Assembly: GCA_036478745.1 (NCBI GenBank)
Contig: JAZGEM010000074.1
Span: 1 to 24,000, forward strand
Length of the DNA: 24,000 nt
From: Cocleimonas sp.
GTDB lineage: Bacteria; Pseudomonadota; Gammaproteobacteria; Thiotrichales; Thiotrichaceae
Direction of reading: 5' to 3'
This document shows positions 1-14,885 of this stretch, in pieces. The position numbers and the translations under genes are program-made. The first letter of the stretch is position 1. The number at the start of each line of letters is the position of its first letter. The notes under the pieces are model-generated. The model saw nothing but the letters and a program-made list of their open reading frames with translations. It did no database searches and was not told the DNA's origin.

Positions 1-117
1 CAATAATAGAAACTAAAAACGACTCATATCGGTTCAAACAAAGCCAACAAAAGGCGCTAAAATAACAACCCAAGGGTGGGTCAATATTCGATGCCTATGT
101 GGGTCAATTTTGGATGC

Positions 118-639
118 TCATTGACAATCTTCTACTAAACGACGATCTCGTCCTTTGGCAGGCTTTGGTCTGCGAACATTTGATACAGGGTTAACAATTA
201 TTCCCATACCCCATTCTTTTATAGCGATAGTGTATAAATGACTCAATAGAGCAAGCTCCAATCGCACGGAACTGGCACTTAGACCCTTTTCCAAACGCAT
301 ATCACGATAATTTGCTACATGCTCTGCACCAAGAGACGCTAAGCTATATTTACCCAGATGCTTGCGCAAAGTATTTCCACGTCTAACTTCAGGCTTCTGA
401 GAGGATGACTTTTTTATTGGGGTTATTTCGTTGTGATAGCGTTCTAATGCTTTTTCAATTGTAGTTTTCTCAGAATGACTTCTAGAGATATAAACACCAC
501 GGACAATTTCATCTTCTGTTGTCCTTGCCCAATCAGTCGCATCCCTTTTAATCCGAAAGGTTTTGGTAACTATTGGGTTTCCTGTAATACGAACAATTGC
601 TTTCCAAGAACCTGATTTTGTCTTAACAATGGTAGCCAT
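118..639 (-). pseudogene. 5' fragment of a tyrosine integrase gene (N-terminal arm-binding and SAM-like core-binding domains only; catalytic domain missing)
   Basis: 173-aa ORF. ...IKEWGMGIIVNPVSNVRRPKPAKGRDRRL is the linker that normally precedes the catalytic domain of tRNA-associated integrases. The frame stops 5 codons later, and no R...HxxR...Y region follows in any frame of 1-117. Confidence 0.7.
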
Positions 640-641
640 AA

Positions 642-681
642 AGTGTACCTTGCATCTGAGCAGTGTACCTTCATTGTACCT
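642..681. repeat. Three direct copies of TGTACCT (AGTGTACCTT x2 at 642-651 and 662-671; TGTACCT at 675-681) between the truncated int start and the att repeat
   Basis: Read directly. The position between int and att suggests arm-type or operator sites. Confidence 0.35.
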
Positions 682-761
682 ATTTGATGAAAAATTGAAA
701 GACGGTGTTTTTACAAATTAGCGAAAATAGAAGTAACTCGCTGATTTATAAAAAGAAATAA

Positions 762-1100: not shown

Positions 1101-1130
1101 AAAAAAACCCATCAAAGAGACGGGTTTTTT
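1101..1130 (-). terminator. Rho-independent-type hairpin (A7CCC...GGGT6) downstream of the small-peptide operon
   Basis: aaaaaaaccc atcaaagagac gggtttttt. A/T runs on both sides make it bidirectional in form. It lies 29 nt after the stop of the 39-aa ORF. Confidence 0.5.
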
Positions 1131-1158
1131 GGGTTATGGAATATCTCAATTAAAGAGA

Positions 1159-1278
1159 TCACTTCTTCTTTCGAGGCTTCTCATAAGTCGCCCAAGCTAC
1201 AATAAAACCAAATACAATTAAAATTGCGGATCCTATTAATATAACCTTTGAGCTTGTTGCTACTGTTAGATATATCAT
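1159..1278 (-). CDS. 39-aa small hydrophobic peptide (MIYLTVATSSKVILIGSAILIVFGFIVAWATYEKPRKKK), paralogue of 1591-1719
   Basis: Not in the ORF track (<60 aa). ATG is preceded by an AGAGGA SD. It has one predicted TM helix and a basic tail. N- and C-termini are conserved with the second copy. Confidence 0.6.
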   Translation of the reverse strand: MIYLTVATSSKVILIGSAILIVFGFIVAWATYEKPRKKK

Positions 1279-1295
1279 TACTTGTCCTCTATTTA

Positions 1296-1508
1296 TTAAT
1301 CTGTTTCGTCAAATTTATATCTGGCAAATATAATCATTCCCACCATATGAAATCCTAAATAGATAAGCATAGCCATGTTCTTTGTTTCATCTTGCCAGTC
1401 ACTTGTATGAATTAAACTCATAAAAATTGCGTATACAGATATTTGAGTGACAAACCTTTTTAACATTCCTAATTTGTTAGATTTTTTGTTGTTTTTGATT
1501 ATAGACAT
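1296..1508 (-). CDS. 70-aa two-TM small membrane protein, function unknown
   Basis: ORF track. It sits between the two paralogous peptide genes on the same strand, with short gaps. Confidence 0.5.
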   Translation of the reverse strand: MSIIKNNKKSNKLGMLKRFVTQISVYAIFMSLIHTSDWQDETKNMAMLIYLGFHMVGMIIFARYKFDETD

Positions 1509-1590
1509 ATTGTATTCCCTTGATAAGGATAGCCATGGTTAACTTCAACCAAATCTCATAAAAACTTAAGACCAAGTTATGTGTTAAAAA

Positions 1591-1719
1591 TTATTTCTTT
1601 TTTGAAGGCTTTTCGTATGTAGCCCAGGCAACAACGGCACCTATAATCACAAAAACAGCAGCGAATACCAATACTGCTATTGATCCAGATGAAGTTGTTG
1701 TAACGGTTGTATACAACAT
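1591..1719 (-). CDS. 42-aa small hydrophobic peptide (MLYTTVTTTSSGSIAVLVFAAVFVIIGAVVAWATYEKPSKKK), paralogue of 1159-1278
   Basis: Not in the ORF track. It has a strong SD (AAGGAGG, 7 nt before ATG). It shares M(I/L)Y.TV.T.S at the N-terminus and VAWATYEKP.KKK at the C-terminus with the other copy. Confidence 0.6.
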   Translation of the reverse strand: MLYTTVTTTSSGSIAVLVFAAVFVIIGAVVAWATYEKPSKKK

Positions 1720-1771
1720 TACTAGTCCTCCTTGTCTTTTAATATCAAGACAGAAAAATTATCCGTTACTA

Positions 1772-1828
1772 TCAAATTCTGTTTAATAATAATGAAATAC
1801 TGATTACCAAGACTAACTTTTTTAACAT
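1772..1828 (-). CDS. Possible 18-aa hydrophobic leader peptide (MLKKLVLVISISLLLNRI)
   Basis: ATG is preceded by a GAGGGGAG SD. It is the first ORF after the predicted promoter. It is very short, so weakly supported. Confidence 0.3.
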   Translation of the reverse strand: MLKKLVLVISISLLLNRI

Positions 1829-1860
1829 GAATATCTCCCCTCATTATTATACTAAGCAAC

Positions 1861-1925
1861 ATTATACCACAAACACTAAGATCTCCTTAGTATTTGTGTG
1901 AGGGGAAACCTTAGATTCTCTTAGA
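1861..1925 (-). promoter_or_regulatory. Promoter (TGgTATAAT extended -10, minus strand, 1861-1869) plus two operator-like elements, homologous to the 9138-9211 region
   Basis: actaag-atctc-cttagt (1875-1891) and cttagattctcttag (1911-1925) align with the reverse complement of 9138-9189 in the same order and orientation relative to the downstream gene. Confidence 0.5.
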
Positions 1926-1964
1926 CTCATGAATGCCGTTTAAATCAATACACTTGGGAAATCA

Positions 1965-3018: not shown

Positions 3019-3075
3019 CAATGGCTTACAAGCACGACTAACGGTTGATTTTGGCTTATGAGCGTGTGGTTGTCC
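3019..3075 (+). repeat. 57-bp direct repeat, copy 1 (downstream of the immunity gene)
   Basis: caatggcttacaagcacgactaacggttgattttggcttatgagcgtGtggttgtcc matches 5555-5611 at 56 of 57 positions. Confidence 0.85.
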
Positions 3076-3173
3076 CGTGTTTGCTATTTTTAATCAAAAA
3101 GTGCTTGAAATTAGGGAGGTGTCCATATATGTCCTTTGTTTCGGGTTGTTTTTAACAAGCATAAGTCATTGTT

Positions 3174-3566
3174 TTAATTATCAATCGAATCTGACCCCTT
3201 TGATTTTATAAGCTTGAACAGATTTATACCGTTTGTCTCTATTAAACTAACTCCAAGTTGTAAACAATTTCTATACTTAGATGGATCAATCTCATGCCCA
3301 TCAAAAATTTCATGTAGAGTAGATTTATCTATTTTTCCGAACATTAAGTCGATTTCTAGTTTCGTATACAATTCTTCTACTATACAAAAAGCCTCTTCTT
3401 TTTGTTTTTTATTTAGATCAGATACATCACCAAACAAATGATTAAATAACACAGCTAAACTACCCCATTCTTCTATCTCTTCTTCATTCAGTTCCGCATC
3501 AACTATCATCTGTTTAAACCCACCGTCAAAATAGAATCCTATTATTTTATCAATGTATTGAATCAT
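3174..3566 (-). CDS. Putative immunity protein for the RHS C-terminal toxin (130 aa, acidic)
   Basis: Its start codon overlaps the rhs stop codon by 1 nt (position 3566, ATGA). It is a small acidic protein directly after a polymorphic-toxin gene. No recognisable family. Confidence 0.6.
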   Translation of the reverse strand: MIQYIDKIIGFYFDGGFKQMIVDAELNEEEIEEWGSLAVLFNHLFGDVSDLNKKQKEEAFCIVEELYTKLEIDLMFGKIDKSTLHEIFDGHEIDPSKYRNCLQLGVSLIETNGINLFKLIKSKGSDSIDN

Positions 3567-5335
3567 TACTTAACCTCAGCTAAAAAACTCTTTCTGCCTT
3601 TTCTAACATACCTTGTTAAGCTTTCTGGGCCTTTTAGTTTGCAAAACTTATCAACTATTTTAGAAGTTCTTAATAGTGCTTTATATAACTGCTTTCTACC
3701 ATTCCTAGTCATCGTTTTTGATGACCAATCTTCTTTACTCGTCCAGTTACCTTTTCCATTTAACTCTGGTGTGTTTTTAAGTACAACATGCAATACAAAA
3801 TGAACCATTCTGTGTGTTTCTGCAGGAAGAAATAATAATGCTTGATTAGGATCACCACCTAAGTTTTTGGGAATTGTATGGTGTCCATGATTTCCATCTC
3901 CTGTATATTGTTTCTTAATATATGAAACACCTACAAAACATCCGATTTTTTTAGTTACTCCTCCCTTTCCAGATACAGTAAATCTGGTATATTGGCCTAC
4001 AGAATTTGTCCCCAGTCTTGCGCCTATATTTAATCCAGACATGAGGTTACTCATTGTAAAATACCCACTGGGATCTATACCATTGACAGGATTTGAGTCT
4101 GTATATATATACTTATTTAGAGTGATTGGGCTACATATCTTTCCCAGCCACTCATCCTGCTGAGTAAACCGCCCAACCCCTTGATCATAATACCTAGCTC
4201 TTAAGTAATATTGCCCTAAGTTTTGATCAAACTGCTCACCCGCAAACAGATAATCATTAACAGTAACACCCGTCTGATTCAGCACCTCACCAAAGGCTTC
4301 ATAATTGTATAAGTCTGTAAATGCACCTGTGCTGTCACTCAAAGCCCTCGTAGAACCCAGCCCATCATAATGATAAGTATTAGTCGTACCATTTCTAGTT
4401 TGACTAAGCAAATCATCACCATAGGTATAGCTAACCGTAGTAGCATTATTCGAGCGCTCTTCAATCACCTGAGCATAAGCCCGATTGCTGTCAACAATAT
4501 ACTGCGTGGTTTCTGATCCCGTGGTTTGGGCTTCTCTTATACCATCGGCATTGTATTGATAACTTGTGGTGCTTCCTGCATTACTGGTTTCTGTCAGTTG
4601 ATTCTTTGCATTGTAGCTATACGTTTTGCTATTGCCGTCCAGTGTTTCCGTCAGGGTACTGCCGTTATTGTCATAGGTGTAGGTTGTGCCACCTTGCTGG
4701 CTTAAACGGTCGTTATCATCATAAGTGTATTGGGTTTGTACGCCGTCTACGGTTTCATAGGTTCGGTTGCCGACCTTGTCGTAGGTGTATTCTGCATTGT
4801 AGTTTCCGTTTGTGGCATCGGTGATGGTTTCAGTCTTTAAACGATTCAGATTATCGTAGCTGTAATCCGTTACCCTGCCTGTTGCCTCGGTGATCTTGGT
4901 GCGTTTTCCTGTGGCATCTAGGCTGTAGGTATACGATGAGAGTGTTGTGCCTGCACTACTTTTATGTGTGAGTGTAGTCAATCTATTCAAGCTATCGTAA
5001 ACGTAGTTATCCGTATTGCCATTGGCATGAGTGACTTTGCTTCGATTGCCGACTGCATCATAGCTGTAGCTTGTTGTGCCTATTGCATCAGTGACGGTTG
5101 AGAGTCTGTTAAGACTATCGAAGCCATAGCCGACGATTTTAATCTCTGTGCCTTTGCTAGTTTTAAGCTGGGTTCGATTGCTTTGATTATCGTATTGGTA
5201 TTCGAGCGTTGTACCGTCGACTTGGGTTTCTTTTGTCAAACGGTTTTGGGTATCGAATGTGTAGGTGGCGGTTGATGCATGACTCGCTGAAACAGTCAGT
5301 AATATAAGAATGAGGTAATAGTGAATGCTTTGCAT
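3566..5335 (-). CDS. Short RHS/YD-repeat polymorphic toxin with an N-terminal signal-peptide-like segment and a C-terminal GHH/AHH-type HNH/EndoVII-like nuclease domain
   Basis: Many YD repeats (YxYDxxGNR / YDxLNRL). The terminal core motif is RARYYDQGVGRFTQQD...NKYIYTDSNPVNGIDPSGY (aa 379-425, the PxxxxDPxGL type). The variable C-terminal domain is 164 aa and contains GNHGHHTIPK (DNA 3878-3886 = GHH) and THRMVHFVLH. The N-terminus is MQSIHYYLILILLTVSASHA|ST. Confidence 0.85.
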   Translation of the reverse strand: MQSIHYYLILILLTVSASHASTATYTFDTQNRLTKETQVDGTTLEYQYDNQSNRTQLKTSKGTEIKIVGYGFDSLNRLSTVTDAIGTTSYSYDAVGNRSKVTHANGNTDNYVYDSLNRLTTLTHKSSAGTTLSSYTYSLDATGKRTKITEATGRVTDYSYDNLNRLKTETITDATNGNYNAEYTYDKVGNRTYETVDGVQTQYTYDDNDRLSQQGGTTYTYDNNGSTLTETLDGNSKTYSYNAKNQLTETSNAGSTTSYQYNADGIREAQTTGSETTQYIVDSNRAYAQVIEERSNNATTVSYTYGDDLLSQTRNGTTNTYHYDGLGSTRALSDSTGAFTDLYNYEAFGEVLNQTGVTVNDYLFAGEQFDQNLGQYYLRARYYDQGVGRFTQQDEWLGKICSPITLNKYIYTDSNPVNGIDPSGYFTMSNLMSGLNIGARLGTNSVGQYTRFTVSGKGGVTKKIGCFVGVSYIKKQYTGDGNHGHHTIPKNLGGDPNQALLFLPAETHRMVHFVLHVVLKNTPELNGKGNWTSKEDWSSKTMTRNGRKQLYKALLRTSKIVDKFCKLKGPESLTRYVRKGRKSFLAEVK

Positions 5336-5554: not shown

Positions 5555-5611
5555 CAATGGCTTACAAGCACGACTAACGGTTGATTTTGGCTTATGAGCG
5601 TTTGGTTGTCC
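5555..5611 (+). repeat. 57-bp direct repeat, copy 2 (upstream of rhs, 24 nt after the stop of the 229-aa ORF)
   Basis: See 3019-3075. Confidence 0.85.
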
Positions 5612-5634
5612 TTTGTTTTCCCTTGTTTTCCAAC

Positions 5635-6324
5635 CTACGTTAAATCAATAATCACAGTTTCATAAAAATTGTCTTTAGGTTGAAATTTTAAAGACTGGTC
5701 ATTAATAAAAACTAATTTTGCTGGTACATTTATAATATTATTATATTCATATGTCGAATAGTCACGAAAAAGAATTTCTCTTTCTGTTAGGTCTCCTTTT
5801 GTTCCTATTAAGACATATAAATGTTTTCCTAATGAATCAAAAACATATTTCAACCTTGCTGATATTTTTTTAGATCGACTCCATGTTTTTCTCGAAGATA
5901 TTTTTGTGTAAATAAAATCTAGTTTACGTATGTCCTCTAGGTGAGTATTAACAATACATCCATCCAGACCAAATTCTGCCGGTAGATCAGCAAACACTTT
6001 TTTTAAGATTTTATAAATAACCATATTCCGATCAGATATTTTTTTACATGAAACATATTTTTCAATCGAAAATCCCACGTTAACTATTGCTACATTTGAC
6101 ATAGAGTCATATTCATAAACAGGAATAGGGTGTATTTTTTTTGTTAAAAACTCTTTAGGCCATAAATGAATAACAACTTTCCCAAATTTTGAATAAACAT
6201 TTCTTTTGAAATTTATATTCAAAGCAAATAAAATACATCTTGTCTCTGCTGTGAGTTTTTGCTCATTTGAATGTCCATAATGTGTAGAAGGACTTATTTC
6301 TACCTGCTGAAGATACTTAGCCAT
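5635..6324 (-). CDS. Hypothetical protein, 229 aa, no recognisable motif
   Basis: Long ORF in an AT-rich context. It is tightly packed with the upstream ORFs on the same strand. Confidence 0.55.
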   Translation of the reverse strand: MAKYLQQVEISPSTHYGHSNEQKLTAETRCILFALNINFKRNVYSKFGKVVIHLWPKEFLTKKIHPIPVYEYDSMSNVAIVNVGFSIEKYVSCKKISDRNMVIYKILKKVFADLPAEFGLDGCIVNTHLEDIRKLDFIYTKISSRKTWSRSKKISARLKYVFDSLGKHLYVLIGTKGDLTEREILFRDYSTYEYNNIINVPAKLVFINDQSLKFQPKDNFYETVIIDLT

Positions 6325-6415
6325 TTATTTCACCATTATTATTTACATACTGGACGAAGATTTCCATCAGGATTTCTTTTATGCTGTCCATAAAACTTAC
6401 CACAGACCCAACCAT
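6317..6415 (-). CDS. Possible 32-aa bridging ORF (MVGSVVSFMDSIKEILMEIFVQYVNNNGEING), or a frameshift scar
   Basis: Its ATG starts 2 nt after the stop of the 276-aa ORF. Its end overlaps the ATG of the 229-aa ORF by 8 nt. No SD seen. Confidence 0.2.
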   Translation of the reverse strand: MVGSVVSFMDSIKEILMEIFVQYVNNNGEING

Positions 6416-6417
6416 AT

Positions 6418-7248
6418 TCAACTACAAGAGCTGCGTAACGTCCGGGTAAAGCTCATTGTAATTAATATTAAGGATTGCTCAGAAGAAACCGCCCAATCCC
6501 ATGCTGTTTGATTTTCTATTATGAGAGCTTTATAACTGTAGTCATTACCGTTCAACAAGGCAGATAACACAAACCCATATGCTTCTATAAATGAGTCTGC
6601 TTGTATTGTTACCTTGGATATTTTAATAAGGCCTTCGTGTAATTTTGTAGTTGCTTCAGTATTTCCTTCAAGGAAAAATGTGGTTGTAAGTTGGTGGGCT
6701 GTGTAGTTAGAAAATATTGACCATGCTTGATCAAGATCACTCATTCCTGTTACCCTTTTTCCAATGACGCCAGCAAACCAGCGATGAACAGCAGGACTGT
6801 CTTGTATCCAGTTGGCTAGAGATTCAGCATTATGTGCTCGAATATCTTTCCATAGTCCGTTATCAAGTTGTTCTTTAACCCAGTTGTCTTTTTTAGCCCA
6901 GTGTCTTGGGGAGATGAAGATATAAGTATCTTTATTTCTGTTTAATGGGGAGGCATCATTTGTTCGTTTCTCATAGTCGCTATTGGCTTTGCCTTTAACA
7001 CTTTTATCTGTACCAATTTCCCATCCTGACATTCCTTTTGGAATGTACTTGTTCCCATGCTCGCTTTTTACAATTCCATCCCAGCCTTCGTTGGAAACAG
7101 AGTCTCCAGAAGGAAAATTAACATCAGCTTTATTATCGCAAGTAAGTACCAGTCGCTTTATAAGCTCAGGCAGTAATATTTCTGCCTTCTTTTTATTTGT
7201 GGCTACCCAGTTTTTAATGTCGTTTGCTGTTATGTACCATCCTGTCAT
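6418..7248 (-). CDS. Hypothetical protein, 276 aa; Trp-rich N-terminal module of about 170 aa; possibly a truncated N-terminal part of a larger protein
   Basis: ORF track. Segments LPELIKRLV...FPSGDSVSNEGWDGIV...GMSGWEIGTDKSVKGKANSDYEKRT...YIFISPRHWAKKDNW look like a conserved globular domain. A PD-(D/E)xK-like D...E..K arrangement is conceivable but unproven. Confidence 0.55.
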   Translation of the reverse strand: MTGWYITANDIKNWVATNKKKAEILLPELIKRLVLTCDNKADVNFPSGDSVSNEGWDGIVKSEHGNKYIPKGMSGWEIGTDKSVKGKANSDYEKRTNDASPLNRNKDTYIFISPRHWAKKDNWVKEQLDNGLWKDIRAHNAESLANWIQDSPAVHRWFAGVIGKRVTGMSDLDQAWSIFSNYTAHQLTTTFFLEGNTEATTKLHEGLIKISKVTIQADSFIEAYGFVLSALLNGNDYSYKALIIENQTAWDWAVSSEQSLILITMSFTRTLRSSCS

Positions 7249-7509: not shown

Positions 7510-8118
7510 ATGTTACAAGCAACCACCATTGCAGATTCACTTTTTACTAAAACACAGCAAAAAGTTATGGGGTTATTATTTAGAAAGCCCGACACTTCAT
7601 TTTATTTAAATGAGATTGTAAGACTTGCTGATATGGGCAAAGGGACAATTAAGCGTGAGCTTGAAAAAATGACTCAGGCAGGATTGTTGACGGTTAAACG
7701 TATCGGCAACCAGACTCACTATCAGGCTAATCCAGCGTCTCCTGTTTATGATGAGCTAATTTCAATTTCTCGTAAAACATTTGGACTTGCAGATGTTATT
7801 CGTCAAGCTCTTCAGACTGATAGTTCTTTTTTAGCTGATGACTCTATTCAATATGCTTTTATTTATGGCTCTATTGCAAAAGGTGAAGATACGGCTCAAA
7901 GTGATATTGATTTAATGATTATTGGGGATGGTTTAGCTTATACAGATATGATGAATCTATTAATCCCAATTGAAAAAGAGTTACAACGCCCGATTAATCC
8001 AAGTATCTATACGCTTGAAGATTTTAAGAATAAACTGAATGAGAATAATAGCTTCATCACGCGAGTTTTAGAGCAAGAAAAAATCAATGTAATTGGAGAT
8101 ACCAATGCCATTAGATAA
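7510..8118 (+). CDS. Winged-HTH (ArsR/MarR-like) fused to a minimal nucleotidyltransferase (MNT) domain; antitoxin-like
   Basis: The N-terminus LNEIVRLADMGKGTIKRELEKMTQAGLL is wHTH-like. YGSIAKGEDTAQSDIDLMIIG is the GS...DxD NTase signature. Confidence 0.75.
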   Translation: MLQATTIADSLFTKTQQKVMGLLFRKPDTSFYLNEIVRLADMGKGTIKRELEKMTQAGLLTVKRIGNQTHYQANPASPVYDELISISRKTFGLADVIRQALQTDSSFLADDSIQYAFIYGSIAKGEDTAQSDIDLMIIGDGLAYTDMMNLLIPIEKELQRPINPSIYTLEDFKNKLNENNSFITRVLEQEKINVIGDTNAIR

Positions 8119-8524
8119 GCTGGAAAACCTTGTCAAAATTGGTCAGCTAAAACATGAGCTACCTGATCAAAATGAATTTGATGGTATGGTGGCATCTGCT
8201 GAAATTCGTTTAAATGATGCGAAGCTTGGTGGATTGTCTCAAGATGGTAAATTTACACTTGCCTATGGCGCTGCTCATGCTTTATCACTTGCTGCGATGC
8301 GCTGGCATGGTTATCGCTCTGAAAATCGTTATATGGTATTTCAATGTCTTGAACAGACATTGGGATTAGAAACTGTAAAATGGCGTGTACTAGATCAATG
8401 CCACAAGCGCAGAAATATTGCAGAGTATGAAGGTCATTTAGAGATTGATTCTCAGTTGTTGAATGAATTAATTGAAATCACAACAGAGCTTTTAGAGCTT
8501 GTTAAAGATTTAGGTGATCTATAG
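8105..8524 (+). CDS. HEPN-like helical protein partner of the MNT gene (non-canonical motif)
   Basis: The ATG at 8105 (or TTG at 8093) overlaps the MNT stop at 8118. ...FTLAYGAAHALSLAAMRWHGYR...HKRRNIAEYEGH resembles the RNxxxH region of HEPN toxins, but E occupies the usual H position. Confidence 0.55.
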   Translation: MPLDKLENLVKIGQLKHELPDQNEFDGMVASAEIRLNDAKLGGLSQDGKFTLAYGAAHALSLAAMRWHGYRSENRYMVFQCLEQTLGLETVKWRVLDQCHKRRNIAEYEGHLEIDSQLLNELIEITTELLELVKDLGDL

Positions 8525-8797: not shown

Positions 8798-9115
8798 TTA
8801 TCTCTCCTGAAGAACCTTAATAATCTTAGCTTGTATACTCTTATTTGTATTAAAAAATAATAAAACTAACTCAGCTAATTTATCATCATCGGCATAAAGA
8901 TATGTAACAGGAATGGAGAGTGCTTTTGCAAGGCGCTGCGCTGTTGCATAGTCAGGTACGTGCTTATCCCTCTCATATTGATTAATTCTTGGACTTGCTG
9001 AAAATTCATCAATCCCTGCAAGTATCCCTAATTGTTTTTGAGAAACCCCTTTTTCTATTCGAGCTGATCGAAGTCTTCTTCCAACGGGTGAATTTTCTGC
9101 CTTCTTTGAACTCAC
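8798..9115 (-). CDS. XRE-family HTH transcriptional regulator (105 aa, GTG start)
   Basis: GRRLRSARIEKGVSQKQLGILAGIDEFSASPRINQYERDKHVP is a classic XRE HTH. It is divergent from a promoter carrying two palindromes. Confidence 0.8.
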   Translation of the reverse strand: MSSKKAENSPVGRRLRSARIEKGVSQKQLGILAGIDEFSASPRINQYERDKHVPDYATAQRLAKALSIPVTYLYADDDKLAELVLLFFNTNKSIQAKIIKVLQER

Positions 9116-9137
9116 TTTAGCGCCTCTTCATACGAGG

Positions 9138-9211
9138 CTAAGAGAATCTTAGGTTTTTGTTTACTTGGATACTAAGGAATCCTTAGTATTGAGAGTGTAA
9201 TCTGCTATAAT
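9138..9211 (+). promoter_or_regulatory. Divergent control region: palindromes ctaagaGAAtcttag (9138-9152) and atactaaggAtccttagtat (9169-9189) plus extended -10 TGcTATAAT (9203-9211)
   Basis: Perfect 6-bp and 10-bp inverted arms read directly. Both share a CTAAG/CTTAG core. The -10 faces the + strand gene at 9273. Confidence 0.55.
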
Positions 9212-9272
9212 GAGGTCGAAACTGTGCAGAGCAGTGCTTTTGTAAGTCAATCGATCAACCAAGGAGGACAAT

Positions 9273-9589
9273 ATGAATCACACTAACGCAAACAAGTTCA
9301 AGAAAATATCGATAATGAATGGTTAGGCTCAAACCAAGTTGCCCTTGGTAAATCATCTAATCGTTTTGTTTCTGGATCATGTAAAGTCATTGGCTTTTTG
9401 TTTGTCACTGCCTTTGCACTTGCAATCGGACTTTTAAAGCTGTTCTTTGCCTTTGCGGGTAGTGCTTCTGAGGTTGCTGATCATGAACATCGATTAGGTG
9501 AAGAAGATCCAAATAGCAGTTTTGACCTAGATCAAACTGAAATGAATCCTGCAAATATACATTTCAAACCTAAGCAATTTACTGATTAA
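9273..9589 (+). CDS. Small single-pass membrane protein; apparent frameshift between the SD/ATG (9273) and the main frame (open from 9287; track ORF 9398-9589)
   Basis: AAGGAGG SD plus ATG at 9273 gives only 17 codons. The frame encoding ...NIDNEWLGSNQVALGKSSNRFVSGSCKVIGFLFVTAFALAIGLLKLFFAFAGS... has no ATG before the TM segment. Confidence 0.4.
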
Positions 9590-9617
9590 TAACCCTCAAA
9601 TAATATTGAGGGTTATT
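9588..9617. terminator. Bidirectional terminator hairpin between convergent genes
   Basis: aataaccctcaa-ataata-ttgagggttatt forms a perfect 12-bp stem. Confidence 0.6.
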
Positions 9618-9621
9618 AATA

Positions 9622-9813
9622 TTATTTAGCCATCTTTGGTTTCTTAACTCTACTTGCAGAACCTTGACCCGAAGATGTTGCACTTCCCGCGCCTGACGCG
9701 CCCTCTCCTGACATACCTCCTATAGCATTAGCACCTAAAATACCAATTGAAGCTAACATCGTAAACCACCACTTTGTAAACAGCAGATAGATAATTAAGG
9801 AAATAATGCCCAA
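9622..9813 (-). CDS. Small membrane protein with a Gly/Ser-rich tail (63 aa, TTG start); may be the 3' part of the decayed upstream gene
   Basis: ORF track. Non-ATG start, overlaps the upstream ORF by 19 nt. Confidence 0.35.
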   Translation of the reverse strand: MGIISLIIYLLFTKWWFTMLASIGILGANAIGGMSGEGASGAGSATSSGQGSASRVKKPKMAK

Positions 9814-10383
9814 GCGGCATGACCAATTGAAGTTACTCCTTCAATATAAGATTTATCACCCCATATATTTGCCAATAAAACTTGATCAATCCAAGCGGCA
9901 ATATGCCAAATTCCCGGCATCATTGATATACCAAAAAACAGTACAACCAACTGAACCACACGGTCTAATCGATAAAGATTTAATATTAAAATAATGGGAA
10001 GCAGCATAATGAGAACCAGCATGGCTACCCCTAACATAATGGGTAATATAAATTTAATAAGCTGCGTGGGAACCTCCAGAAAGAAGGTGCCTATATGGGC
10101 AAAAATAGCCGCCAGTTTGTTTTTAATCCATGTCAGGGGGTTTGATGATTCTGAAGAAGTAGAATCGGCTGATACGCTGGCTATTTCTCCAGGGCCTAGT
10201 TTTGAATGAAATAACCGATCGAGCTTGTCTGCACTGAATAAAGCCCCAATTAATTGTTGGCTCAGTTACAGAAGATTTATGTTGAGATATTGCACCCGCT
10301 GCTACCCCAATTTTCTTAGCGAGTTCTTTTTAAGATAGTTTACTTAATTTACGCGAGGCTTGAATTGCCGAATAAAGTAACAC
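9795..10383 (-). pseudogene. Decayed gene: XRE-type HTH N-terminus fused to a multi-TM region
   Basis: Minus-strand reading from the GTG at 10383 gives LLYSAIQASRKLSKLS*KELAKKIGVAAGAISQHKSSVTEP, with an in-frame TAA at 10330-10332. A frameshift is needed near 10262 to enter the frame ...SADKLDRVISFKLGPGEIAS...TWIKNKLAAIFAHIG...ILPIMLGVAMLVLIM..., which contains the 80-aa track ORF. Confidence 0.45.
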
Positions 10384-10851: not shown

Positions 10852-10916
10852 ACTAAGAATACCTTAGCATACAGACAAAAAAACCAAGATTCTCCTAGCC
10901 TCATTTAATTGAGGCT
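10852..10916 (+). promoter_or_regulatory. Third, degraded copy of the dual-operator region, plus a 5'-UTR hairpin of the XRE pseudogene
   Basis: actaagaataccttagc (10852-10868) and ccaagattctcctagcc (10884-10900) align with the reverse complement of 9138-9189. The hairpin is agcctca-tttaat-tgaggct (10897-10916). Confidence 0.45.
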
Positions 10917-10921
10917 ATATA

Positions 10922-11233
10922 GTGAATATTAAGAAAGAAGCAATTTCACCTGTTGGAAAAAGGCTAAGATCTGAACGGACAGCTAAAGGAATATCCCAAA
11001 AACAATTGGCTTTTCTGGCAGGGATTGATGAGTTTTCTACAAGCCCAAGGCAATCAATACGAAAGGGACAAACACGTCCCTGATTTTGCTACAGCCCAGC
11101 GCCTAGCTAAAGCACTTTCTATTCCTGGACTTACCTTTATGTAGAAGATGATAAGTTAGCAGAATTTATATTAGTGTATTCTTCTGCTACAAAAGAGACC
11201 AGACAAACTATTATAGATAGTCTTAGTTTATAA
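10922..11233 (+). pseudogene. Frameshifted paralogue of the XRE regulator at 8798-9115
   Basis: Three frames must be joined: VNIKKEAISPVGKRLRSERTAKGISQKQLAFLAGIDEFSTSPR / NQYERDKHVPDFATAQRLAKALSIPGLTFM* / YLYVEDDKLAEFILVYSSATKETRQTIIDSLSL*. It is collinear with the intact protein across 2 frameshifts. Confidence 0.75.
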
Positions 11234-12387: not shown

Positions 12388-13269
12388 ATGGAGCTTATTA
12401 TGAGTAAACTGACATGGGAACTTAAAATATTACAAAGGCGTAATCATGATGGAGGACGTAGTACACAACACAACCGAAAGAAGATTTTAATCCAAATTGC
12501 AAAACAGTTGAAAGAAATAGGATTTAATCAGATGGGCATACACAGCTTAAAAGCAAAACATACGATTAAACTGGTGGACAAATGGAAAAAAGAGGATCTA
12601 AATCCTGGAACTATTAAAAATCGTATGGCGCATCTGAGATGGTGGGCTTCTAAGGTAAATGCCACACACAAAATCCCTACTAATAAGCAATTAGGAATTG
12701 CCCAGCGCATTTATATAACAAACGTAGACAAATCAATTGTTCTTAAGCAAGAACATCTCTCAAGAATATCAGATCCCTTCCTTAAACTAAGTCTAAGGTT
12801 ACAGTCTGAATTTGGTCTACGCCGAGAAGAAAGCATTAAATTTATTGCGGCTTTTGCAGACAAAGGCAAATCTATATCTTTAAAAGATACCTGGTGTAAA
12901 GGTAAAAGAGCAAGGGAAATACCAATCATCACCGATTCACAACGAAAATTAATAGATGAAATTAAAAGATTTACAGGAGATAAATCTTTAATACCTCAAG
13001 ATAAGATGTACAAACATCAGTTAAATAAATATCGAAATAATGTCACAAAAAATATCATTGGTTTTAGCAAAGGCCACGGACTTAGACATAATTACGCACA
13101 ACAGAGATATAAAGCATTATCTGGTAATAACTGTCCACTACAAGGTGGAAAGCACCAAAGAGATATGACAAATCTTGAGCGCAACAAAGATAGAGAAGTA
13201 AGGCTCATCATTTCTGAAGAATTAGGTCACTCACGTGAACAGATTACATCATCATATTTAGGAAGTTAA
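12388..13269 (+). CDS. Tyrosine recombinase (small 'Integrase_1'-like type, 293 aa)
   Basis: Catalytic signature in order: GLRREES (R), KGKRAREIPI (K), HGLRHNYAQ (HxxR), LGHSREQITSSYLG (H...Y). Confidence 0.8.
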   Translation: MELIMSKLTWELKILQRRNHDGGRSTQHNRKKILIQIAKQLKEIGFNQMGIHSLKAKHTIKLVDKWKKEDLNPGTIKNRMAHLRWWASKVNATHKIPTNKQLGIAQRIYITNVDKSIVLKQEHLSRISDPFLKLSLRLQSEFGLRREESIKFIAAFADKGKSISLKDTWCKGKRAREIPIITDSQRKLIDEIKRFTGDKSLIPQDKMYKHQLNKYRNNVTKNIIGFSKGHGLRHNYAQQRYKALSGNNCPLQGGKHQRDMTNLERNKDREVRLIISEELGHSREQITSSYLGS

Positions 13270-13575: not shown

Positions 13576-14694
13576 ATGACTAGACAGAGAAAGATCAAGA
13601 CTAAATACAATATCAAATACGTTCATGAAGCAAATGGGCGACTTGTCTATAGACCTTATATAAAAAAGTCAGAAAGATATGAAGGTATCATTGTTGATAA
13701 GAAAGGCTTTTTAAAACCACCAATCAAATTAGGTAAGCCTGGTGATGACGCAGACCTTATTATGAGGGCGTATCTAGCAGTTAAAAATCAATTAAAAAAC
13801 CAAGATAGAATAATCAAAGGCACCTTAGGCTATATAGTCCAAGAATATCAAGACTCGCGCCAATATAAAAACAAAGCAGCAAGTAGCCAAAAACGTGATA
13901 AAAATTTAATTCGCGTTCTTGAACAAAAAACAAGAATTGATAATAAACCTTCGACTCTTTCAGATATTCATATCGATTTTATTACAAAACCCCTGATAAA
14001 TGCTATCGCAGAAAAACGTTTAGCTGTTTATAAACAGAATGGAAGAAAAGGTGAAGTACAGGTAAACCGAGAAATAACTTTTTTAAGCGGGGCAATCAGT
14101 TGGGCAGTGAACTATTTGCCCAATTTAGGTATTAATGTTAACCCTCTGCTAGGAATTAAAAAAATTAAAGAACCCAAAAATGAACGCTATGTAACTGATG
14201 AGGAGTATTACAAGCAATATAAAATTAGCAGCGAGGTTTCACCATACTTACAGCCTGCATTTGAACTTACTTATCTTATGGGCTTAAGAGGCTCAGAAAC
14301 ACTTGATATAAGGGTAAGTGATTGTACAGATGCTGGCATTAGGACTCATCGTAGAAAGGGTTCTAAAGACAATATAGTTGAATGGTCAGAGCGTTTAAAA
14401 AATGCTTATGAACATGCATTACTATTGCATAAGGATCATAAAATCTTAGAAATAGATCCTCACCTCATTATTGGTGATACAGGAGGTAAGATGCCGAAAA
14501 GCACTTTTGATGATGCTATGCAAAGATTAAAACGAAAAATGAGTTCTAAAGGTTTAAGTAATACATATTGGAGCTTACACAAGCTTAAATCCAAAGCTCA
14601 GAGTGATGCTAAAAATAAAGATATTAGTGGATTGTCAGAATCTATGAAGCGCCATTACGACACCAAACTCCATAAGGTTGACCCCGCCAGATAG
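13576..14694 (+). CDS. Tyrosine integrase of the tRNA-Leu island (372 aa)
   Basis: Size, position next to the tRNA 3' end, and LMGLRGSETLDIRVSD (Arg I), HRRKGSKDNIVEW, LHKLKSKAQSD (HxxK instead of HxxR), MKRHYD (Tyr). Confidence 0.8.
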   Translation: MTRQRKIKTKYNIKYVHEANGRLVYRPYIKKSERYEGIIVDKKGFLKPPIKLGKPGDDADLIMRAYLAVKNQLKNQDRIIKGTLGYIVQEYQDSRQYKNKAASSQKRDKNLIRVLEQKTRIDNKPSTLSDIHIDFITKPLINAIAEKRLAVYKQNGRKGEVQVNREITFLSGAISWAVNYLPNLGINVNPLLGIKKIKEPKNERYVTDEEYYKQYKISSEVSPYLQPAFELTYLMGLRGSETLDIRVSDCTDAGIRTHRRKGSKDNIVEWSERLKNAYEHALLLHKDHKILEIDPHLIIGDTGGKMPKSTFDDAMQRLKRKMSSKGLSNTYWSLHKLKSKAQSDAKNKDISGLSESMKRHYDTKLHKVDPAR

Positions 14695-14798
14695 CAATCT
14701 TTTTCCTAAAAGTAGTATTCTTTTTCCTAAATATAGAGTTGCTTGAAGAATTTACTTAGTTAGAAAAACCATAAGCCGCTGATTTTAATGAAAATAAA

Positions 14799-14885
14799 TG
14801 GTGCCCAGGGCCGGAATCGAACCGGCACGGTGTTGCCACCGAGGGATTTTAAGTCCCTTGCGTCTACCAATTTCGCCACCTGGGC
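14799..14885 (-). tRNA. leuZ: tRNA-Leu (anticodon UAA), long variable arm, CCA encoded
   Basis: The reverse complement is GCCCAGGTGGCGAAATTGGTAGACGCAAGGGACTTAAAATCCCTCGGTGGCAACACCGTGCCGGTTCGATTCCGGCCCTGGGCACCA. The anticodon loop is CTTAAAA. Confidence 0.95.

Follow-up and report, generated by a model that had tools for sequence, protein, structure and literature searches.

What does a mobile element keep under the control of a restriction-modification-type controller protein when neither a restriction enzyme nor a methyltransferase is there to be controlled? The question is raised by a locus in Cocleimonas sp. (assembly GCA_036478745.1, contig JAZGEM010000074.1), of which we analyzed positions 1 to 24,000; this whole stretch is referred to below as the window. 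On its minus strand, near one end of a tRNA-Leu island, the window carries an operon with three short open reading frames (ORFs) of 42, 70, and 39 amino acids (aa). The 42-aa and 39-aa products are hydrophobic peptides that share a tail with the motif AWATYE, and we refer to them and their relatives as the AWATYE family. The main new result is the regulatory link of this peptide operon to an operator of controller (C) proteins. Coordinates of all features are collected in Table 1.

The AWATYE peptides and their family

A preliminary description of the window had proposed the ORFs, their ribosome-binding sites (RBSs), a promoter, and a terminator, and all of these were confirmed on the minus strand where it had placed them. 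Its statement that none of the ORFs was in the ORF track did not hold for public data: an NCBI metagenome-assembled genome (MAG) of Cocleimonas sp. lists the 42-aa ORF as hypothetical protein V3U71_09105, the 39-aa peptide is public protein P0002, and public gene callers predict all three ORFs. The hairpin of the terminator has a folding energy of -21 kcal/mol (z = -5.3), and none of 200 shuffled sequences was equally stable.

The two peptides are 54% identical over their full length (BLASTP E 2e-12), and the stretch VAWATYEKPxKKK is identical in both. Over the 13 tail codons we counted 8 synonymous changes and 2 non-synonymous steps, the latter in a single codon. The proportion of synonymous differences (pS) is thus 0.98 in the tail and that of non-synonymous differences (pN) 0.065, an excess of synonymous over non-synonymous change that is far beyond chance. 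In the helix core, by comparison, pN is 0.46 versus a pS of 0.65. This asymmetry between tail and core therefore argues for selection on the protein, and the paralogy with a shared tail and a diverged core, which had been proposed before, is borne out.

We built a HMMER profile from the two window peptides only and searched it against 1.84 billion representative proteins. The profile recovered one independent relative, MAIATATLGLKAFTALAVIVTVLGAIIAWATYESPSKKK (E 8.9e-5), and a repeat search that included this sequence found three more members; a fifth variant from outside the window came from a metagenome scan. Loci of these relatives are given L numbers below. In the alignment of six members the invariant positions include M1, a threonine in the N-terminal region, A-W-A-T-Y-E, and then P and lysine. 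A GGAG-type RBS lies 6-10 nucleotides (nt) upstream in all eight copies of the gene, and pN is smaller than pS in 28 of 28 pairwise comparisons. The peptides of L011 and L017 differ by six synonymous changes and one non-synonymous change, those of L014 and L015 by six synonymous changes and none of the other kind. Since the AWATYE-x-P tail and the RBS are kept while the differences are mostly synonymous, the peptides are real proteins, and the 42-aa and 39-aa ORFs are real genes and true paralogues under purifying selection. Two expectations of the preliminary description, selection on real proteins and a family defined by the tail, are thereby substantiated through five non-window variants with conserved reading frames and unequal synonymous and non-synonymous divergence.

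The family is previously undescribed and rare. Scans of the peptides and of every small neighbor with Pfam, NCBIfam, PHROGs, and PADLOC returned sub-threshold noise only, so that the earlier failure to recognize the family was well founded, and a literature search for the AWATYE motif gave nothing relevant. The peptide was absent from 185,579 GTDB species-representative genomes in two scans; the pattern of the first, [VI]VAWATYE, was too narrow, and a broader pattern was included. With the two window peptides, a word-indexed protein search and DNA scans of genomes, viral contigs, and metagenomes gave the window's own organism only. All contigs that carry the window peptides are 99.98-100% identical to the window across the shared sequence and therefore come from one organism. 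The peptide was likewise not found in viral contigs or in plasmid and phage records (searched, for plasmids and phages, by tblastn). Four matches of a WATYEKP DNA pattern in viral contigs lay in unrelated frames and were rejected as chance.

Across members the best 19-residue Kyte-Doolittle window scores 2.35-2.94, with the 42-aa peptide at 2.94, and the net charge is +2 to +5 with the basic residues mostly clustered at the C terminus. A hydrophobic helix is thus followed by the invariant juxtamembrane AWATYE-x-P motif and a lysine cluster. Given the family alignment as input, AlphaFold predicted one uninterrupted helix from residue 2 to residue 35, with disorder in the tail (predicted local distance difference test score, pLDDT, 73.8). 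The peptides are accordingly modeled as single-helix inner-membrane peptides of approximately 40 residues, and the positive-inside rule would put the AWATYE-P-KKK tail at the cytoplasmic face of the membrane. A similar outline is known from CcoQ/FixQ (PF05545) of the cbb3 oxidase, a peptide of about 50 aa in which W-x-Y and a basic cluster come after the single helix. PF05545 did not appear in the Pfam scan at E <= 1 and the window holds no oxidase genes; the resemblance is a generic juxtamembrane aromatic-plus-basic pattern.

The window operon also bears traces of rearrangement. Just 5' of the 42-aa ORF, approximately 70 nt of the 3' end of a 76-aa membrane-protein gene are kept, and the start of a further ORF of 18 aa is the start of the first gene in homologous operons (L011), after which this ORF enters the remnant of the 76-aa gene in another frame. 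The retained first-gene start and the remnant together mark the window operon, by alignment with its relatives, as an apparent deletion derivative, one that has also undergone duplication of the peptide gene. The 18-aa ORF, suggested earlier as a hydrophobic leader, is therefore present as an ORF and is probably a deletion scar, not a conserved leader. The 70-aa protein between the two paralogues found no homologues outside this organism, and it has no detectable similarity (E 0.26) to the 76-aa two-helix protein in the same position in L012.

Controller operators and the likely regulator of the operon

The upstream region of the peptide operon aligns base for base with the regulator-peptide intergenic regions of L009, L011, and L017. 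Each of these three regions, as well as positions 9116-9273 of the window, contains exactly two CTAAG-N5-CTTAG palindromes 19 bp apart. The controller C.Csp231I recognizes CTAAG-N5-CTTAG at two 15-bp sites that are 18 bp apart, and the distance is 25 bp in EcoO109I (PMC4321490). Judged by the published sequence, the palindrome pair corresponds to the operator of the C.Csp231I/C.EcoO109I class of controllers, and such a pair, with a spacer in the range of 18-25 bp, lies at the controlled promoter both at 1876-1924 and at 9138-9186. When one mismatch was allowed, this C-box pattern matched five times in the window versus 0.61 matches expected, and none of 100 shuffles reached five. In the operon promoter the extended -10 element, which is conserved, follows 9 nt past the proximal C-box (O2). 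The promoter was not listed by a consensus promoter scanner because its -35 is weak.

In L009, L011, and L017 a helix-turn-helix gene of 103-106 aa is divergent from the peptide operon. The window is homologous to these relatives up to about 1940-1945, the point at which the regulator gene would be expected to start, and the place of that gene is occupied by an rve_3 transposase pseudogene; the cis-linked regulator has therefore been lost to an insertion sequence. The preliminary description had proposed a repressor-controlled operon. Its notion of protein control stands, with two C-boxes as the operator, whereas the adjacent ORF (1965-2336), which we considered as the repressor, was rejected as it is the start of the transposase pseudogene.

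The regulator is instead likely to be the 105-aa product of an intact C gene at 8798-9115, which has the same operator specificity and on homology would act on the peptide operon in trans from 7 kb away. The product matches the PADLOC restriction-modification model Control_protein over its full length (E 1.8e-26, 90.4 bits) and aligns to C.Csp231I (PDB 3lfp) without gaps over residues 13-97 (E 1.6e-26). The base-contacting residues Ser32, Gln37, and His43, named in PMC4321490, are all conserved, and the identity to the regulators beside the peptide operons in L009, L011, and L017 is 72-75%.

In regulator homology, DNA-contact residues, and operator half-sites, the circuit agrees with those of C.Csp231I and C.EcoO109I ("motif 8", Sorokin et al. 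2009), from which it differs slightly in the spacer between the operators (19 bp versus 18 and 25 bp). The controlled divergent genes, unlike those of the published systems, encode tiny membrane proteins and not a restriction enzyme or methyltransferase, and in the window the regulator is split from its operator by the transposase insertion and must act in trans. No restriction-modification domain was found in the operon or beside the C gene in the window, L009, L011, and L017; the Dcm cluster of L011 lies beyond an integrase gene on the opposite strand. With neither a restriction endonuclease nor a methyltransferase among the controlled genes, the locus is therefore not a restriction-modification system.

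Plasmid homologues of the controller (40-56% identity) all have CTAAG-N5-CTTAG directly upstream. The genes divergent from them vary, so that small-membrane-protein operons are not the general partner of these controllers. One distant homologue with CTAAG-N5-CTTAG, on Variovorax paradoxus plasmid CP063168 (L026, 843-2415), is divergent from an operon of small membrane proteins that encodes products of 78 aa (two helices) and 160 aa, a 68/92-aa membrane protein, and a lipoprotein, none of them related to AWATYE peptides.

Within the 14-kb island of the window there are three C-box modules: one with the intact C gene, one in which the C gene is frameshifted, and that of the peptide operon, in which the C gene is replaced by the transposase. 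Their number suggests accretion or recombination of several related elements. Beside the intact C gene, positions 9274-9590 (plus strand) hold a good RBS followed by a 17-aa ORF and, in another frame, a hydrophobic helix with an acidic tail that runs up to a hairpin near 9592-9620. This segment looks like a frameshifted analogue of the 93-aa first operon gene of the relatives, to which it has no detectable sequence similarity.

Candidate functions of the peptides

In the relatives the peptide always lies within mobile-element DNA. The surroundings comprise tRNA-Asn, an Integrase_1 gene, and a Dcm/HATPase/Z1/DUF4420/AIPR cluster in L011, umuDC and integrases in L017, and MksE with a set of recombinases in L009. 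In L012 and L018 the peptide cassette directly follows the TraG_N gene of an integrating conjugative element (ICE). The conjugation genes of the L012 element match models of the PFL_47xx (integrating-conjugative-element) family, namely traC_PFL_4706, TIGR03755, and TIGR03756, which we take to be markers of the ICEclc/PAPI-1 (MPF_G) group.

The peptide is the sole gene common to all loci, and its partners differ. L011, L017, and L012 combine it with a 93/86-aa single-helix protein that has an acidic tail and with a 35-aa peptide; in L009, L014, and L015 its partner is a 172-aa soluble protein, and the orphan 70-aa protein is confined to the window. In L012 the ATG of the peptide overlaps the stop codon of the 76-aa membrane-protein gene (TAATG), which implies translational coupling. 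The 35-aa partner is a second conserved micro-protein (MIMNVLTVLAILAIGYFIYSLFYF...; L011 1237-1344, L017 6171-6278, L012 7959-8066) with 86-89% identity between loci; the window lacks it, and no known family matched it.

We tentatively favor, at somewhat less than even confidence, that the AWATYE peptide serves the mobile element as an inner-membrane effector gated by C protein, with an exclusion- or immunity-like function. The center of O2 lies at about -29 relative to a predicted start near 1854, and the site spans the -35 position, from where a bound C protein should occlude RNA polymerase. The promoter of the C gene would lie within the same operator region, making C self-regulating as in the published systems. 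Under such control the peptides would be made freely in a C-free cell, for example a new transconjugant, and would be damped to a steady level once C accumulates. In divergent restriction-modification controller circuits, the "early" position is that of the protective gene and not that of the toxic gene. The peptide might then act through its tail on a conserved partner at the cytoplasmic membrane face, and the outcome would be a block on incoming DNA or on a competing element. It is this early-then-damped logic, together with the membrane location, the position after traG in the intact ICE, and the fast-evolving core between conserved ends, that leads us to place exclusion or immunity first.

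Known exclusion proteins offer a partial parallel. Eex of SXT/R391 and TraS of F are inner-membrane proteins encoded beside traG on a conjugative element, and the peptide, a predicted inner-membrane protein, is so placed in L012 and L018; in the window, a TraG_N fragment lies 8 kb from the peptide operon. The determinants of Eex/TraG exclusion are reportedly cytoplasmic, to go by the title of a reference listed in PMC5812530, and the conserved tail of the peptide is predicted to be cytoplasmic as well. In a limited literature check, no exclusion system for this type of ICE came up.

Several points weigh against this reading. Whether C represses or activates the operon promoter is judged by geometry only, and the second TATAAT would put O2 near -44, an activator-like position. 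One half-site of O1 is mutated and the cis-linked C gene is gone, so the window copy of the operon may be misregulated or decaying. TraS and Eex are larger proteins, of about 140-170 aa and several helices each, to which the peptide showed no homology. The tail of the peptide is not group-specific but invariant across elements, the opposite of what exclusion-group specificity predicts. Finally, an intact type IV secretion system (T4SS) is present at one locus only, and all known members of the family come from a handful of metagenome samples, such as SRR10729170 and SRR7968110.

Nearly as likely as the exclusion- or immunity-like role, and by itself a doubtful but serious possibility, is a tightly gated membrane toxin or abortive-infection effector that oligomerizes and depolarizes or permeabilizes the inner membrane, the controller keeping the peptides off, in the way it holds back restriction enzymes, until C is diluted or inactivated. 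The size, the single helix, and the basic tail are like those of membrane toxins, toxic genes are the classical charge of controllers, and whether controller homologues outside restriction-modification systems control such genes too was asked by Sorokin et al. (PMC2632904). The neighborhoods are rich in conflict systems (the RHS toxin with its candidate immunity gene, the Polbeta pair, the AIPR/Z1/DUF4420 cluster, MksE), in which the variable small membrane partners could be immunity proteins. A promoter that fires without C would, however, poison each new host, unlike the delayed expression of a restriction enzyme, and no antitoxin is evident where the peptide neighbors a soluble protein (L009). 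The fast evolution of the helix core is likewise at odds with a pore-forming interface, which is usually conserved, and neither PADLOC nor PHROGs returned a match.

The coupling to the 76-aa membrane protein and the position after TraG_N in L012 would also suit an accessory subunit or assembly factor of a membrane complex, such as the ICE mating channel, with no conflict role, and the invariant tail suggests one conserved partner. We consider such a function improbable: the peptide is intact and selected in the window, where the T4SS is a fragment, its partners vary among loci, and none of the NCBIfam models of ICE proteins matched.

Tandem paralogues on a mobile element that encode peptides of less than 60 aa, here about 40, with one hydrophobic helix and a charged C-terminal tail are also known from the type I toxins Hok, Ldr, TisB, Ibs, and Fst, in whose stabilization modules an antisense RNA checks translation. 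The AWATYE peptides have no sequence similarity to these toxins, and they are encoded in multi-gene operons controlled by a protein operator, with short intergenic gaps and, in L012, a start codon that overlaps the upstream stop. The position of a candidate antisense promoter is not conserved among the eight copies (promoter-like antisense sites differ in position or, as in L012, L014, and L015, are absent, and L012 has none at all), consensus promoter scans being weak evidence in AT-rich DNA, and in the window Rfam finds three tRNAs only. For want of a conserved antisense promoter we rejected the antisense reading, in keeping with the preliminary description, and regard a type I module as very unlikely.

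Least probable of all is a holin-like or lysis peptide of a degraded prophage, to which the hydrophobic helix with its charged tail and a weak Pfam match to Phage_holin_3_6 (E 0.016) might point, since the 15.7 bits of that match are far under the 28.4-bit threshold, the paralogue has no such match, PHROGs gave no holin, no locus contains an endolysin, spanin, or phage structural gene, and the viral-contig and phage searches were empty.

The host island and the significance of the locus

The island is 14,037 bp long, and a perfect 56-nt repeat of the tRNA-Leu 3' end marks its two boundaries, with the core genes (ligA, dksA, and others) starting past the tRNA cluster. No further transcription unit separates the peptide operon from the island end (746-816), and the operon terminator lies about 285 bp inside it. 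The TraG_N fragment is, by homology, the remnant of a conjugation gene and marks the island as a decayed ICE.

Table 1. Positions of the operon, control, and island features in the window.
Feature	Position	Strand	Details
Extended -10, TGgTATAAT	1869-1861	minus	aligns with tgTTATGAT of L011 and L017
Second TATAAT	1851-1846	minus	
C-box O2 (CTAAGGAGATCTTAG)	1876-1890		overlaps the -35 position of the extended -10 promoter
C-box O1 (CTAAGAGAATCTAAG)	1910-1924		one half-site mutated; 19 bp from O2
18-aa hydrophobic ORF (MLKKLVLVISISLLLNRI)	1828-1772	minus	GAGGGGAG upstream
3'-end remnant of 76-aa membrane-protein gene	1790-1720	minus	alignment TTCTGTCTTGATATTAAAAGACAAGGAGGAC versus L012 TTTCTGTCTTAATTGTAAAAGACGAGGAGAAT
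42-aa AWATYE-family peptide (MLYTTVTTTSSGSIAVLVFAAVFVIIGAVVAWATYEKPSKKK)	1719-1591	minus	AAGGAGG RBS 7 nt before ATG
70-aa protein, two hydrophobic segments	1508-1296	minus	between the two paralogues; orphan
39-aa AWATYE-family peptide (MIYLTVATSSKVILIGSAILIVFGFIVAWATYEKPRKKK)	1278-1159	minus	AGAGGA RBS 7 nt before ATG
Intrinsic terminator (AAAAACCCGUC-UCUUU-GAUGGGUUUUU + U run)	~1130-1101	minus	closes the operon
rve_3 (DDE) transposase pseudogene	1965-2801	plus	two in-frame stops; occupies the place of the relatives' C gene
Intact C protein gene, C.Csp231I/C.EcoO109I class	8798-9115	minus	PADLOC and PDB 3lfp matches
Canonical C-box pair	9138-9152, 9172-9186		19-bp spacer; adjoins the intact C gene
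Third module copy	10853-10867 (one C-box), 10922-11144 (frameshifted C-gene remnant)	plus	
Island-end direct repeats, 3' part of tRNA-Leu	746-816, 14783-14853		tRNA-Leu at 14799-14885
RHS-repeat gene	3566-5335		
130-aa ORF	3174-3566		directly downstream of the RHS-repeat gene
Polbeta/NTP_transf_2 nucleotidyltransferase gene, 202 aa, with overlapping 143-aa ORF	7510-8524	plus	
TraG_N fragment, 80-aa ORF	9795-10037	minus	34% identity to residues 401-479 of the L012 TraG_N protein
Integrase_1 gene	12388-13269		shared with L011 and L017
Tyrosine integrase gene	13576-14694		

The remaining cargo includes two gene pairs. The nucleotidyltransferase gene and the overlapping 143-aa ORF, for which Pfam gave no match, may form a nucleotidyltransferase-type toxin-antitoxin module; adjacent ORFs of 276 and 229 aa (5635-7248, minus strand) matched no family. 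The 130-aa ORF may be the immunity gene of the RHS-repeat protein. Direct repeats of 73 nt that are 90% identical (3019-3091 and 5555-5627) flank these two genes, and the pair looks like a repeat-bounded cassette.

At the island end we observed strain polymorphism (window 1-757; L001 10963-12905; L003 10640-20120). In the NCBI MAG contig, a BCCT transporter gene comes after the tRNA-Leu repeat. In the 3.16-Mb contig (window), the repeat is followed by a 173-aa N-terminal fragment of an integrase and then by an IS21-type element (IstB), past which a large helicase, an MZB (PF09369) protein, and a UvrD-like helicase are encoded. This trio has the look of a defense system; if so, a second island would lie in tandem.

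Only about a quarter of the new controller homologues sit with restriction-modification genes, and what the remaining ones regulate, and whether they also control toxic genes, is a question posed in 2009 (Sorokin et al., PMC2632904). The locus described here, with the caveat that the family is very rare and the window copy a rearranged derivative, provides a concrete case in which the regulator class, the exact published operator, and a conserved, very small controlled product are all identifiable: a known regulatory circuit carries a new, very small membrane payload on the remnants of conjugative elements. With it, the under-annotated repertoire of small proteins on mobile elements gains a family of membrane peptides, about 40 aa long and under selection. 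A broader proposal, which we regard as speculative and rather unlikely, is that conjugative elements have recruited controller proteins of the restriction-modification type to time a new kind of payload: a 40-residue membrane peptide with an invariant cytoplasmic AWATYE tail, which keeps competing DNA from entering or establishing itself or kills once control is lost. If this is true, ICEclc/PAPI-1-type elements would have their first described exclusion or kill switch, and the proposal would answer what controller homologues outside restriction-modification systems control.

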